From the IMG/VR virus record IMGVR_UViG_2737471849_000009: a DNA stretch of 28,335 nt. One strand, given 5' to 3'. The first letter of the stretch is position 1, and each line of letters begins with the position of its first letter. Both the position numbers and the translations under genes were made by a program. Positions 2,493 to 28,000 of the stretch are shown here, one piece after another. Below the pieces are notes generated by a model. That model was given only the letters and a program-made list of their open reading frames with translations. It did not search any database and was not told where the DNA came from. The DNA is from a virus (taxonomy: Duplodnaviria > Heunggongvirae > Uroviricota > Caudoviricetes).

Positions 2493-3320
2493 TTATTTAA
2501 TCTGGATAAATGGTGTATTGGCACCACTGGTCATGTATTGCGGCAGTGTACCGTTCCACTTGTTGATGGCTTCCAGCTCCATGACGCCTGGGTTCTGGCG
2601 TAGAGCTTCGCCGCGTAAACGAATGGCATCGGCTTCTGCCTGGGCTTTTGTTCGAATGGCATCAGCCTGTCCGGCAGCTTCCGCACGTAGCATGTTGGCC
2701 TCCGCTTCACGTTGCTTGACTTCCTGCTCGCGCTGCAGGGTTTTCTGGTTTGCCGTGACTTTGGCATTAATGCTGTCGATAACGGTTGGCGGGTACTCCG
2801 GCTTACCCACATATGAGAGGCTCATTACCTGAATACCGATAGGTGTCATCTCTGCCTGAATGTCTTTAAGAGCTTCATCCAGCAGCTCAGACTTGCCGCC
2901 GTCGATAAATTTGTCAGTGGTCATTTGGCTGGCCAGTCGGTTGAGTGCGTCGGCGATCTTCTGGCGCAGGTCAGTGTCGGTAATGTCATCCACGCCTTTG
3001 CGGTAGGTCTGAAACACCGTGGTAACTTTGGATGGATCAACTTTGTAGGCCACGCCAATGTGATAGCCGATGGTTGTACCGTCACTCATCTGGAAACTGA
3101 ACGGTTCATCGTAGGTCTTCATTTGTTTGAAGGTGGGGAAGATATAAACTTCAGTATTCCAGCCAGTCCAGTAGCGACCAACACCGACCACCTCACCGAC
3201 GCCTTTGTCGTCGCCCAGTTTATTTACCTTGATGCCAACATTACCTGGTTCAACGCGATCGCAACCGACAAGGCCAATAGTCGGCAGAACAATGGCTAAA
3301 GCAAAAATAATTTTTTTCAT
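2493..3320 (-). CDS. SPFH/band-7 (prohibitin/HflC-like) family lipoprotein
   Basis: 275 aa; N-terminal signal peptide with lipobox LVGC; C-terminal Ala/Glu/Arg-rich coiled-coil segment (QREQEVKQREAEANMLRAEAAGQADAIRTKAQAEADAIRLRGEA) typical of SPFH proteins. Confidence 0.75.
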   Translation of the reverse strand: MKKIIFALAIVLPTIGLVGCDRVEPGNVGIKVNKLGDDKGVGEVVGVGRYWTGWNTEVYIFPTFKQMKTYDEPFSFQMSDGTTIGYHIGVAYKVDPSKVTTVFQTYRKGVDDITDTDLRQKIADALNRLASQMTTDKFIDGGKSELLDEALKDIQAEMTPIGIQVMSLSYVGKPEYPPTVIDSINAKVTANQKTLQREQEVKQREAEANMLRAEAAGQADAIRTKAQAEADAIRLRGEALRQNPGVMELEAINKWNGTLPQYMTSGANTPFIQIK

Positions 3321-5449: not shown

Positions 5450-6139
5450 CTAACCAAATCTGTTTATGTTGAATGGTACTGATGAGATCACTTTAGACTG
5501 GATATAAAGCAGAGCTAACCCCTCTTTTTCGATGCTCCATGGTTGATAATTGGGGTTATCAGATAACACCATGATTTTGCTTCCAATTTTTTGAAGCCTT
5601 TTCACGTAGCATTCTCCATCAAAACAAAATGCATAAATACCATCGCCATCAAAATAAGTTACTGTCTTATCAAGAAAAAGAAGGTCGCCAGGTGAGATTG
5701 TGGGAGCCATACTGTCTCCTCTGGCGTTACCTATTTCTATATTTTTGAATGCCCGATTTCCAACAAGACGTCGGGCATATTCAGGATCAAGTTCTATTGA
5801 GCGCACTACATCTATCAAGTCACCACGGACATGAGTTCCATCACCGCAACTGAACTCAACATCAAGGACATTAAACACGACGCTATCTGTTCTTGTCTGG
5901 TGTTTCTCTGGCGAGGAGAAGGTCGGTGAGGGGTCTTCACCTAAGAACCAGGATTGTGGATAACCGCTAATCTCTGATAACTGCGCAAGCTTATCACTCC
6001 GTGGAAATGTCTTTCCTGTTGTCCAGTACTGCACTGATTGCGCACTCACACCTAACTTACGGGCCAGTTGAGCTTGAGTCCATCCTTTTGCTTTCAGCAT
6101 CGCGGCTATACGATTTTCCGTGTTTTTGACGTTCTTCAT
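5450..6139 (-). CDS. cI: CI-like prophage repressor (HTH plus LexA-like S24 peptidase domain)
   Basis: 229 aa; N-terminal HTH (WTQAQLARKLGVSAQSVQYWTTGK); C-terminal peptidase motifs GDSMAPT (Ser) and VKRL (Lys); divergent from a Cro-like gene. Confidence 0.85.
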   Translation of the reverse strand: MKNVKNTENRIAAMLKAKGWTQAQLARKLGVSAQSVQYWTTGKTFPRSDKLAQLSEISGYPQSWFLGEDPSPTFSSPEKHQTRTDSVVFNVLDVEFSCGDGTHVRGDLIDVVRSIELDPEYARRLVGNRAFKNIEIGNARGDSMAPTISPGDLLFLDKTVTYFDGDGIYAFCFDGECYVKRLQKIGSKIMVLSDNPNYQPWSIEKEGLALLYIQSKVISSVPFNINRFG

Positions 6140-6272: not shown

Positions 6273-6572
6273 ATGAAAGGAAATGATTACGACAAACTTC
6301 GTACATTAATTGCGCAAAATGCCATAGCGCGAAATCTTGGTGTGACGCCGCAAGCGGTGAATCAGTGGTTTTCAAAAAACACAATTCCTGCTCGTTTTGT
6401 TTTACGCGTATGTGAAGTAGTTGCATGGAAGGTCACGCCACATGGCTTAAGGCCAGATCTTTATCCTCACCCTGAAGATGGAATTCCTGATTCGTTACGC
6501 AAAATTTCAAATCCAAGCCTAGCGCGCACGGAAGATGGGCAGAGTGATTCATCAGAAATGTCCACGCGATGA
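6273..6572 (+). CDS. Cro-like HTH regulator (YdaS-type)
   Basis: 99 aa; HTH segment IARNLGVTPQAVNQWFSKNTIP; divergent from cI across the operator region. Confidence 0.65.
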   Translation: MKGNDYDKLRTLIAQNAIARNLGVTPQAVNQWFSKNTIPARFVLRVCEVVAWKVTPHGLRPDLYPHPEDGIPDSLRKISNPSLARTEDGQSDSSEMSTR

Positions 6573-6648
6573 ACGGTTACTGAACGAAAAAAGAAAAGCC
6601 GGGCCGCACTCCGTCAGCCCGACTTATTCTGATTAGTAAGGGGATTTC

Positions 6649-7509
6649 ATGATGATCAATAAACAAAAATTAGTCAACCCTGAAAACCTGCCAGTGATTG
6701 AGTGGCAGGGGGTACGCGTAGTTACCACTGAAACGCTGGCGGCGGGATATGGCACGGATGAAGCTAATATCCGTAAAAATCTGTCGCGCAATCTTGAGCG
6801 CTTTGAAGATGGGAAACATTATTTTCTTTTAACTGGTGATGCCCTGAAAGCATTTAAGGACAGAGTGACTATTGGTCACTCTGTTGGAAGAAATGCGCGT
6901 TCACTCACTCTCTGGACAGAACGCGGCGCTGCCCGCATGTCAAAAATCGTCGATACAGACGAGGCCTGGTCGTTCTTCGAAAAAATGGAGCAGGCGTATT
7001 TTCGTAAAGCAACGCCTTCTTCAAACACTATTCCAGACTTTGACGATCCGATCGCTGCTGCTGAAGCGTGGATTGAAGCCAAAAAATCCGAACGCCTTGC
7101 TCTCGGGTATGCAGAGCGTCAGGCTCGCTACATCAGCAAACTCGAAAGCCATCTCGCCGATGGCATCACTCCTGTGCAGTTCTGCAAACAACTCAACGGT
7201 GTAAACACTCGTCAGATTAATGCGTTCCTTGAAGAGCGTAACTGGCTGTATGACGACCGTCCGGAGGCTATGTATCCGCGCTGGCGTGTAAAAGCGTATG
7301 CACGTGACCAATACCTGACTGAGCGTTCTGGGCAGGTTGAGCAGGAAAACGGGGAAATACGCGAGATTTTCAAACCACTCCTGAAGAAAAAAGGTGCCGC
7401 CTGGTTATATCGCCATTATCTGAACGGTGAACTACCGATGAAGAAAACATGGGATGGGCTGTTTACCCATAACACTGAGCTCGCGAATCTTTTACAGGAG
7501 AACAAATAA
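6649..7509 (+). CDS. Antirepressor (ORF6N-type N-terminal domain plus Ant/KilA-C-like C-terminal domain)
   Basis: 286 aa; N-terminal domain (LPVIEWQGVRVVTTETLAAGYG ... LTLWTERGAARMSKIVDTDEAWSFFEKMEQAYF) is paralogous to ORF 13301..13789; longer C-terminal domain typical of phage antirepressors. Confidence 0.75.
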   Translation: MMINKQKLVNPENLPVIEWQGVRVVTTETLAAGYGTDEANIRKNLSRNLERFEDGKHYFLLTGDALKAFKDRVTIGHSVGRNARSLTLWTERGAARMSKIVDTDEAWSFFEKMEQAYFRKATPSSNTIPDFDDPIAAAEAWIEAKKSERLALGYAERQARYISKLESHLADGITPVQFCKQLNGVNTRQINAFLEERNWLYDDRPEAMYPRWRVKAYARDQYLTERSGQVEQENGEIREIFKPLLKKKGAAWLYRHYLNGELPMKKTWDGLFTHNTELANLLQENK

Positions 7510-7718
7510 TGCAAACCAAGACGTGTGTAACTGGTGATGTCGATCTGAAACCTTGCCCGTTCTGCGGAAATCCGGAAGTACAACTCATTGAGGTGAAATA
7601 TTTTCTGGATGGCGATGATGGTTATTACGTCGCATGTACTTGCTGTAACGCAAACCAGATCCCTGATTCGAAAGAACGTGCTGTTCATGACTGGAATCAG
7701 CGCGAAAACGCGGATTGA
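7509..7718 (+). CDS. lar: Lar-family restriction alleviation protein (zinc-ribbon)
   Basis: 69 aa with CPFCG ... CTCC four-cysteine pattern typical of Lar/RalR-like proteins; start overlaps the antirepressor stop (TAATG). Confidence 0.6.
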   Translation: MQTKTCVTGDVDLKPCPFCGNPEVQLIEVKYFLDGDDGYYVACTCCNANQIPDSKERAVHDWNQRENAD

Positions 7719-7754
7719 CGGCGAGTAGGTACAAAATGATCCGCAACCAACATA

Positions 7755-18510: not shown

Positions 18511-18737
18511 TGTTTTTCCAGGGGCTTTTTCAACGTAAAAATAATACCCCCGTCACAACGCCCGGGATGCTTGCGGAAGAACTTGGGTTGTCATACGACA
18601 CCTATACCGGACTGCAACCTGTATTTTCAGAGGATGATCGTGAACAGGTGATTGCCGTGTATGGCCCGGTGCATGCGCGGCTTCTTCGGCAGTCTCTGGA
18701 ACTGATCAGTGATGCCGGCGAGGTTAAAAAAAAGTAG
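18510..18737 (+). CDS. Tail assembly chaperone G-like (short; possibly truncated)
   Basis: 75-aa ORF ending in the slippery run GTT AAA AAA AAG TAG, directly upstream of a T-domain ORF in the -1 frame. Confidence 0.5.
   Translation: MFFQGLFQRKNNTPVTTPGMLAEELGLSYDTYTGLQPVFSEDDREQVIAVYGPVHARLLRQSLELISDAGEVKKK
18728..18734 (+). other. Candidate -1 programmed ribosomal frameshift heptamer A_AAA_AAG
   Basis: X_XXY_YYZ heptamer in the G frame 1 codon before the stop; the -1 frame opens at 18728 and is continuous with ORF 18749..19039. Confidence 0.55.
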
Positions 18738-25074: not shown

Positions 25075-28000
25075 ATGGGTAAAGGCAGCAGTAAGGGGCA
25101 TACCCCGCGCGAAGCGAAGGACAACCTGAAGTCCACGCAGCTGCTGAGTGTGATCGATGCCATCAGCGAAGGGCCGGTTGAAGGTCCGGTGGATGGATTA
25201 AAAAGCGTGCTGCTGAACAGTACACCTGTGCTGGACAGTGAGGGGAATACCAATATCTCCGGCGTCACGGTGGTGTTCCGGGCCGGTGAGCAGGAGCAGA
25301 CACCGCCGGAGGGGTTTGAATCCTCCGGCTCCGAGACGGTGCTGGGTACGGAAGTGAAATATGACACGCCGATCACCCGCACCATTACGTCTGCAAACAT
25401 CGACCGTCTGCGCTTTACCTTCGGTGTACAGGCACTGGTGGAAACCACCTCAAAGGGTGACAGGAATCCGTCGGAAGTCCGCCTGCTGGTTCAGATACAA
25501 CGTAACGGTGGCTGGGTGACGGAAAAAGACATCACCATTAAGGGCAAAACCACCTCGCAGTATCTGGCCTCGGTGGTGGTGGGTAACCTGCCGCCGCGCC
25601 CGTTCAACATCCGGATGCGCAGGATGACGCCGGACAGCACCACAGACCAGCTGCAGAACAAAACGCTCTGGTCGTCATACACTGAAATCATCGATGTGAA
25701 ACAGTGCTACCCGAACACGGCACTGGTTGGCGTACAGGTGGACTCGGAACAGTTCGGCAGTCAGCAGGTGAGCCGTAATTATCATCTGCGCGGGCGCATT
25801 CTGCAGGTGCCGTCGAACTATAACCCGCAGACGCGGCAATACAGCGGTATCTGGGACGGAACGTTTAAACCGGCATACAGCAACAACATGGCCTGGTGTC
25901 TGTGGGATATGCTGACCCATCCGCGCTACGGCATGGGGAAACGTCTTGGTGCGGCGGATGTGGATAAATGGGCGCTGTATGTCATCGGCCAGTACTGCGA
26001 CCAGTCAGTGCCGGACGGCTTTGGTGGCACGGAGCCGCGCATCACCTGTAATGCGTACCTGACCACACAGCGCAAGGCGTGGGATGTGCTCAGTGATTTC
26101 TGCTCGGCGATGCGCTGTATGCCGGTATGGAACGGGCAGACGCTGACGTTCGTGCAGGACCGACCATCGGATAAGGTGTGGACCTATAACCGCAGTAATG
26201 TGGTTATGCCGGATGATGGTGCGCCGTTCCGCTACAGCTTCAGCGCCCTGAAGGACCGCCATAATGCCGTTGAGGTGAACTGGATTGACCCGGATAACGG
26301 CTGGGAGACAGCGACAGAGCTTGTGGAGGACACGCAGGCCATTGCCCGTTACGGTCGTAATGTTACGAAGATGGATGCCTTTGGCTGTACCAGCCGGGGG
26401 CAGGCACACCGCGCCGGGCTGTGGCTGATTAAAACAGAACTGCTGGAAACGCAGACCGTGGACTTCAGCGTGGGGGCCGAAGGGCTTCGCCATGTGCCGG
26501 GCGATGTCATTGAAATCTGCGATGATGACTATGCCGGTATCAGCACCGGTGGTCGCGTGCTGGCGGTGAACAGCCAGACCCGGACGCTGACGCTCGACCG
26601 TGAAATCACGCTGCCATCCTCCGGTACCACGCTGATAAGCCTGGTTGACGGAAGTGGTAATCCGGTCAGCGTGGAGGTTCAGTCCGTCACCGACGGACTT
26701 AAGGTGAAAGTGAACCGGGTTCCTGACGGCGTTGCAGAATACAGTGTGTGGGGGCTGAAGCTGCCGACGCTGCGCCAGCGCCTGTTCCGCTGCGTGAGTA
26801 TCCGTGAGAACGACGACGGCACGTATGCCATCACCGCCGTGCAGCATGTACCGGAAAAAGAGGCCATCGTGGATAACGGGGCGCACTTTGACGGCGACCA
26901 GAGCGGCACGGTGAATGGTGTCACGCCGCCAGCGGTGCAGCACCTGACCGCCGAAGTCACCGCAGACAGCGGGGAATATCAGGTGCTGGCGCGCTGGGAG
27001 ACGCCGAAGGTGGTGAAGGGGGTGAGCTTCCTGCTTCGCCTGACCGTGGCAGCGGATGACGGCAGTGAGCGGCTGGTCAGCACGGCCCGGACGACGGAAA
27101 CCACATACCGCTTCAGGCAGCTGACGCTGGGGCGTTACAGGCTGACAGTCCGGGCGGTAAATGCGTGGGGACAGCAGGGAGACCCGGCGTCGGTATCGTT
27201 CCGGATTGCCGCACCGGCAGCACCGTCGAGGATTGAGCTGACGCCGGGCTATTTTCAGATAACCGCCACGCCGCATCTTGCCGTTTATGACCCGACGGTA
27301 CAGTTTGAGTTCTGGTTCTCGGAAAAACGGATTGCGGATATCAGGCAGGTTGAAACCACAGCCCGCTATCTTGGCACGGCGCTGTACTGGATAGCTGCCA
27401 GTATCAATATCAGGCCGGGCCATGATTATTATTTTTACGTTCGCAGTGTGAACACCGTTGGCAAATCGGCATTCGTGGAGGCTGTCGGTCGGGCGAGCGA
27501 TGATGCGGAAGGTTACCTGGATTTTTTCAAAGGCAAGATAACCGAATCTCATCTCGGCAAGGAGTTGCTGGAAAAAGTCGACCTGACGGAGGATAACGCC
27601 AGCAGACTGGAGGAGTTTTCGAAAGAGTGGAAGGACGCCAACGATAAGTGGAATGCCATGTGGGCTGTCAAAATTGAGCAGACCAAAGACGGCAAACATT
27701 ATGTCGCGGGACTTGGCCTCAGCATGGAGGATACAGAGGAAGGCAAACTGAGCCAGTTTCTGGTTGCCGCTAACCGTATCGCGTTTATTGACCCGGCAAA
27801 CGGGAATGAAACGCCGATGTTTGTGGCGCAGGGCAATCAGATATTCATGAACGACGTGTTCCTGAAGCGCCTGACGGCCCCCACCATTACCAGCGGCGGC
27901 AATCCCCCGGCCTTTTCCCTGACACCGGACGGAAAGCTGACGGCGAAAAATGCGGATATCAGTGGCAGTGTGAATGCGAACGCCGGGACGCTCAATAATG

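Follow-up and report, generated by a model that had tools for sequence, protein, structure and literature searches.

What does a small zinc-ribbon gene of the Lar family do in the early operon of a lambdoid prophage, and does the name of the family, which refers to restriction alleviation, describe its role? Here, we consider these questions for one such gene, found at positions 7509-7718 of a 28,335-nucleotide stretch of DNA (hereafter, the window, meaning the whole stretch analysed). The window is an Escherichia coli lambdoid prophage; over 99% of its first 25 kb, it matches a prophage of strain E21845/O/A at 99.6% identity. Relative to the latter, about 5.5 kb is absent at window positions 18604-18611, a block of head and tail genes comprising most of the portal gene and the genes for the protease, the capsid, the connectors, the tail completion protein and an Ig-domain protein that is probably the major tail protein; also absent, at 15237-15238, is about 1 kb of the lysis cassette, with the M15 endolysin gene and part of a holin gene. 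Judging by these absent segments, the copy studied here is probably a defective prophage.

The gene, lar, occupies 7509..7718 on the plus strand in the ORF list, with an ATG at 7509 and a TGA at 7716-7718, and encodes 69 amino acids. The first zinc knuckle of its product, C16-P-F-C19-G20 (CPFCG, residues 16-20; 7554..7568, plus strand), is the sole CPxCG in the window when all six frames are searched, and across 16 relatives, including Rac RalR, this knuckle shows no variation at C16, P17, or C19 and hardly any at G20. The second knuckle, C43-T-C-C46 (CxxC), is encoded at 7635..7646 on the plus strand, with C43 and C46 invariant and C45 not conserved, and a C-terminal helix at 7680..7703 (plus strand) carries the family signature A58-x3-W62-N63-Q64-R65, in which A58, W62, N63, and R65 are invariant. 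The original prediction gave exactly this ORF, length, and CPFCG motif, all of which are borne out, but counted four cysteines where there are in fact six (C6, C16, C19, C43, C45, and C46); only C16, C19, C43, and C46 are invariant across the aligned 16 relatives, forming the CxxC...CxxC pattern, whereas C6 and C45 vary. The ORF is a real, conserved gene under purifying selection. Compared with Salmonella and metagenome homologues, non-synonymous divergence (pN) is 0.15-0.23 versus a synonymous divergence (pS) of 0.69-0.78, which is near saturation; dN/dS is about 0.11 for L005, one of these close relatives, and about 0.28 for the more distant phage Fostie, the only two homologues for which it is computable, dS being saturated for L011 and L008. 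The identical 69-aa sequence is present on at least 1000 public contigs, and copies at 94% nucleotide identity or more occur in 17 of 5426 complete E. coli genomes. A 125-aa minus-strand ORF that overlaps lar (7416-7793) was taken to be a shadow ORF because conservation tracks the plus-strand frame. Another shadow ORF in the window, of 564 aa and without a Pfam match (26005-27699, minus strand), is antisense to the tail-tip gene J, which starts near 25075 on the plus strand and runs past the window end, so that J is absent from the ORF list.

Profile searches place the protein in the Lar family in both Pfam (PF14354, Lar_restr_allev; 43.1 bits versus a gathering cut-off of 28.6; E 5e-11) and NCBIfam/TIGRFAM (the subfamily model TIGR03655, anti_R_Lar; 49.6 versus a curated cut-off of 39.6; E 3.7e-13), with a concordant match to PHROG 599 ('Lar-like restriction alleviation protein'; E 5.2e-14); the positive control, Rac RalR, scores 53.5 bits on PF14354. 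Aligned with 15 relatives, Rac RalR among them, the protein shares C16, P17, C19, C43, C46, A58, W62, N63, and R65 with every one of them, and it has the family architecture of a single small domain with CPxCG, a second CxxC, and a C-terminal A-x3-W-N-x-R. Membership in the Lar family is almost certain, in agreement with the prediction of a Lar-like protein, and the adverse outcome named with that prediction, placement in an unrelated zinc-ribbon family, did not occur in the profile searches. The gene is already known as an annotation and represents no new kind of system, the RefSeq name for the identical protein WP_001193680.1 being 'Lar family restriction alleviation protein'. The family is broad: used as a one-sequence query, the window protein matches 643 clusters at 50% identity, many of them with tandem domains, so a single function for all Lar members is unlikely. 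Many members are about 120 aa long and contain two tandem Lar domains (P0020-P0162). Relatives from Erwinia (L094, 3297-3692) and from MGYG-HGUT-00110 (L096, 3294-3695) are encoded by ORFs of 131-133 aa, with an N-terminal extension of about 70 aa that has no Pfam match and may reflect either a mis-called start or an extra domain.

An AlphaFold2 model of the protein, built from an input alignment of 13 sequences, has a mean pLDDT of 82 and consists of beta-strands at residues 2-7, 24-31, and 37-43, followed by a C-terminal helix (55-63) with the WNxR motif. Among solved structures, sequence search with the protein returned none below an E value of about 1, and Foldseek with the model found no related structure; the top neighbours in BFVD, the collection of predicted viral structures, are mostly proteins named Lar, with TM-scores of 0.6-0.74. 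There is a weak, fold-level resemblance to the zinc ribbon of Elf1, the eukaryotic and archaeal transcription elongation factor 1 (20% identity; none by Foldseek). As modelled, the fold is that of a binding module, and the likeness to Elf1 hints, weakly, at a binding module rather than an enzyme and implies nothing further on function.

The genomic setting is that of an early operon. The gene for a CI-type S24 repressor (5450-6139, minus strand; Peptidase_S24 and HTH_3) is divergent from a Cro/YdaS-like gene (6273..6572, plus strand; PF15943, 47.3 bits; also annotated in RefSeq for the same prophage), which is the first of the rightward operon. Next is an antirepressor-type gene, ant (6649..7509, plus strand), the 286-aa product of which combines an N-terminal ORF6N domain (PF10543, 67.1 bits) with a C-terminal KilAC/ANT domain (PF03374, 28.9 bits) and matches PHROG 63 with an E value of 2.8e-47. 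Then come lar, an 'Ash/Rha' ORF (7736-8398, plus strand), two small ORFs, an O-like gene, and the genes for a DnaC-like loader and the DnaB helicase. A terminator between cro and ant was considered and rejected: the hairpin at 6596-6625 was flagged on the minus strand only, and its plus-strand fold does not exceed shuffled sequences in stability (z = -0.19). Relatives at 55-72% identity, from Salmonella, other enterobacterial prophages, and a metagenomic phage, occupy the slot between cro and the replication genes too. Across 75 diverse viral loci of the Lar family, the 149 neighbours drawn from the two upstream genes include 5 DNA methyltransferases, 4 ORF6N, 2 ANT, and 1 Bro-N proteins, along with NinB, YopX, DUF551, SSB, and helicases, and the two downstream genes include 6 integrases, 2 Rha, RusA, DUF551, and others; recombinases, too, occur among the neighbours. 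Given that the neighbours vary in this manner, the family has no canonical position, and the recET-xis-int site in Rac is one case among others. Thus, an early-left location is not a Lar-family trait, and the view that the early-right position of the window gene departs from a usual early-left one does not hold. By contrast, the predicted overlap and coupling with the antirepressor gene stand: at the junction (7496..7511, plus strand), AGGAG at 7496-7500 precedes the ant stop TAA (7507-7509) and the lar ATG (7509-7511), so that stop and start share one base (TAATG), with the Shine-Dalgarno sequence 8 nt upstream of the ATG, and this GGAG(G)-N7-TAATG junction is also present in the phages Fostie and SaltyDalty and in the viral contig L021, at about 40% protein identity.

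Some other features of the prophage deserve mention in their own right. An isrK/C4 RNA module begins 72 nt downstream of lar, with isrK RNA at 7790-7866 (plus strand; Rfam, 61.9 bits) and C4 antisense RNA at 7891-7978 (plus strand; 80.1 bits), both gathering-level matches inside the ORF 7736-8398, which PGAP names 'ash family protein'. The isrK/C4 region coincides exactly with the Pfam Phage_ASH match (aa 15-103), so the 'Ash' half may be RNA read as protein; inspection by eye also suggests a possible promoter (TTGATT at 7755-7760, a spacer of 17 nt, and TACACT at 7778-7783) with a transcription start near 7790, and an in-frame ATG at 8033, preceded by AGGGG at 8020-8024, as a possible start of the Rha part. 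A second module, c4-a1b1/isrK/C4 (13055-13250, plus strand; Rfam, 52-79 bits), directly follows the Q antiterminator gene (12632-13027) and is itself followed by a gene for a 162-aa ORF6N protein (ORF 13301-13789), which in strain E21845/O/A is a truncated pseudogene according to RefSeq. This layout resembles antQ-isrK-anrP of Gifsy-1, and the RNA modules as such resemble the control modules of P1 immI and Gifsy-1 IsrK-AnrP (PMC4825925); the ORF6N gene after the second module brings the antirepressor-type genes of the prophage to three, two of which follow C4-type RNAs. Set against L012-L016, the region 6649-8398 shows sharp mosaicism. Identity among the copies reaches 97-100% in lar and the C-terminal half of ant; in the N-terminal half of ant it is 74-100%, except where KilA-N has taken the place of that half. 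Identity falls to 46-75% in the 'Ash' (RNA) segment and spans 36-100% in the Rha segment. The C4/isrK segment varies strongly, in a way that resembles variation in immunity specificity. Elsewhere in the window, a gene for an AraC-family regulator (HTH_18/HTH_AraC; 13953-14756, plus strand) occupies a typical moron position, after the Q/ORF6N region and before the holin gene, and the leftward early region encodes an SPFH/Band-7 domain protein (2493-3320, minus strand) together with DUF5406 and DUF4222 genes.

The function of Lar is best approached through two characterized proteins. Rac Lar, also known as RalR (b1348, 64 aa; sequence taken from the E. coli K-12 record), shares PF14354 and TIGR03655 with the window protein, to which it is 33% identical over 60 residues, with KPCPFCG, GYY, CxxC, and A-x3-WN-x-R all aligning. 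The two proteins are similar in size and both are encoded by early genes of lambdoid prophages, but Rac lar is at the distal end of a leftward operon, beside recET/xis/int, whereas the window lar is the third gene of a rightward one. Rac Lar has been reported to alleviate restriction and enhance modification, as Ral does (King & Murray 1995, summarised in PMC2993543), although the anti-restriction result was disputed by Guo et al. (PMC4041452); it is the sole family member tested for anti-restriction. [quoted passage not shown] Kinship of the window protein to Ral was rejected for want of any sequence or profile similarity: BLASTP between the two gives an E value of 4.6, PF11058 does not match the window protein at E <= 1, and Ral itself matches only PF11058.

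The lar gene, placed third in the rightward early operon of this E. coli lambdoid prophage (after cro and ant and before the replication genes), encodes a small zinc-ribbon protein with a single domain, the translation of which is coupled to that of the upstream antirepressor-type gene. We propose that, as with Rac Lar and, by analogy, with lambda Ral, this protein would be made immediately upon infection or induction. The protein would then bind the host type IA restriction-modification complex (EcoKI-like), and the bound methyltransferase would act efficiently on unmodified sites, so that the phage DNA would be modified rather than cut. Consistent with this scenario are the profile matches in three libraries, the 33% identity to Rac Lar, the invariance of the signature residues, the three-strand-plus-helix model with its Lar-named viral neighbours, and the presence of DNA methyltransferases at 5 of the 149 upstream neighbour positions of family members; furthermore, the early-operon position implies expression timed for when anti-restriction would be needed. 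Nothing in the window indicates a type I system as the target. We assign a probability of roughly 45% to the combined statement, that is, a Lar-family zinc ribbon, coupled to ant, that modulates type I restriction; that the protein actually alleviates such restriction, as argued by analogy, is plausible but somewhat doubtful.

Rac Lar itself raises an altogether different prospect, given that, in the account of Guo et al., RalR is a toxin with Mg/Ca-dependent DNase activity that the RalA small RNA neutralises (PMC4041452). With the Pfam and TIGRFAM family in common, the window protein could, in principle, be a non-specific DNase of the same kind, the toxin of a type I toxin-antitoxin pair, which we consider very improbable on several counts. 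The protein scores 26.2 bits on the RalR equivalog model NF007260, far below the cut-off of 113. The RalA model (Rfam RF02694), which recovers RalA in Rac at 225 bits, matches neither the window nor any of six homologous loci, and a scan for inverted repeats suited to RalA-type antisense pairing returned only chance-level pairs, the sole repeat touching the lar ORF being 14 nt long with one mismatch; by our own rough estimate, chance alone would yield about 0.7 pairs of this kind in the region. Six positions of RalR at which changes cut toxicity have been reported (14, 37, 39, 49, 51, and 52; PMC4041452); in the pairwise alignment only one, N51, is kept in the window protein (as N63), the others being replaced (C14 by N, T37 by Q, Y39 by I, R49 by D, and K52 by Q), and of positions 49, 51, and 52, which map to the C-terminal helix at 7680..7703, N63 is the only one retained. 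The inactive position-52 mutant is given as K52Q in the text of the RalR paper and as K52G in its table, and the plasmid is named A154G; codon 52 of ralR is AAA (L002 5773-5775, E. coli K-12), and A154G would yield Glu (K52E). Because the inactivating substitution at this codon is ambiguous, the argument from the Gln of the window protein at that position is a weaker one. In addition, the predicted fold has no nuclease-like structural neighbour, and lar is coupled within an early lytic operon instead of standing alone as a toxin gene with a divergent small RNA. On the equivalog score, the missing RalA, and the substitutions, the protein is not a RalR orthologue, and, since a toxin fits the evidence so poorly, the most likely role is early modulation of type I restriction-modification in the manner of Lar and Ral.

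Quite another possibility is suggested by the neighbour of lar. The zinc ribbon might work with or on the adjacent ORF6N/KilA-N/Rha antirepressor, as a partner subunit, regulator, or co-factor, with no relation to restriction and 'Lar' as a mere label; we regard this as unlikely, even though the linkage recurs. In all 17 E. coli copies, lar is overlapped by an ORF6N- or KilA-N-domain gene, and an ORF6N, KilA-N, or Rha gene lies directly upstream in 9 of about 13 lineages of the subclade: the window clade, L096, L095, L017, and L018 (ORF6N in the latter four), the Erwinia relative L094 (Rha domain), L021, Fostie, and SaltyDalty; in L008 and L063, a Rha-type gene is directly downstream. The linkage persists whichever half of the partner is replaced: strain LH50-c has a KilA-N domain in place of ORF6N at the N-terminal, DNA-binding end of ant, while the C-terminal 160 residues and lar remain 97-100% identical, and in L017 and L018 the C-terminal half is different. 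The Escherichia phages Fostie (PP925832) and SaltyDalty (PP925825), like L021, encode an antirepressor 41% identical to that of the window followed by a Lar-like protein at 38-44% identity, which in the two phages has a C-terminal extension of roughly 25 aa; their junction retains the one-base TAATG overlap with GGAGG upstream, although the pair is placed ahead of xis-int, with several genes in between, and not, as in the window, between cro and the replication genes. The Elf1-like fold, that of a module binding protein or nucleic acid, would also suit such a partnership. However, close relatives at 66-72% identity from Salmonella and one metagenome (L005 and L011) have no antirepressor-type neighbour, nor do L019 and L020, where YopX and YqaJ are found instead; the association, frequent in the window subclade, is rare among the 75 diverse loci, as the 4 ORF6N, 2 ANT, and 1 Bro-N among 149 upstream neighbours attest. 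A scan of species-representative genomes yielded 3 loci, too few for statistics, though each of them proved informative. Moreover, the lineages are not independent, so that inherited linkage could explain much of the pattern, and the association is a lead rather than proof of functional linkage. A third prospect, that Lar counters some other host defence or has a range broader than type IA, for example, including type IV restriction, appears decidedly unlikely. It draws on the great diversity of the family and on the PhageMaP preprint, in which a Lar homologue of phage Bas63 was reported to be less essential in DH10B than in type IV-positive strains without an intact type I system, suggesting that the homologue is of importance even where no such system is intact (PMC11482910). 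Yet this observation is indirect and concerns a different protein that is far more RalR-like, and nothing in the window bears on other defences.

For the Lar family, the implications are chiefly cautionary, and as a discovery the window gene matters little. Thousands of phage genomes bear 'Lar-like' annotations, and the family name goes back to one 1995 experiment, later disputed, on a relative that is only 33% identical to the window protein; 'anti-defence' is therefore best read as a hypothesis. The only residual novelty concerns the pairing with ant. It is conceivable, albeit quite improbable, that in the subclade ant and lar form a conserved, coupled two-gene module, mobile between early-left and early-right operons, in which Lar acts with or on its DNA-binding partner, and the recurrent coupling provides a cheap, testable lead on the role of this subclade. 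If such a module is real, its function would be distinct from classical restriction alleviation, and the Lar label would be misleading for the clade and possibly for much of the family.
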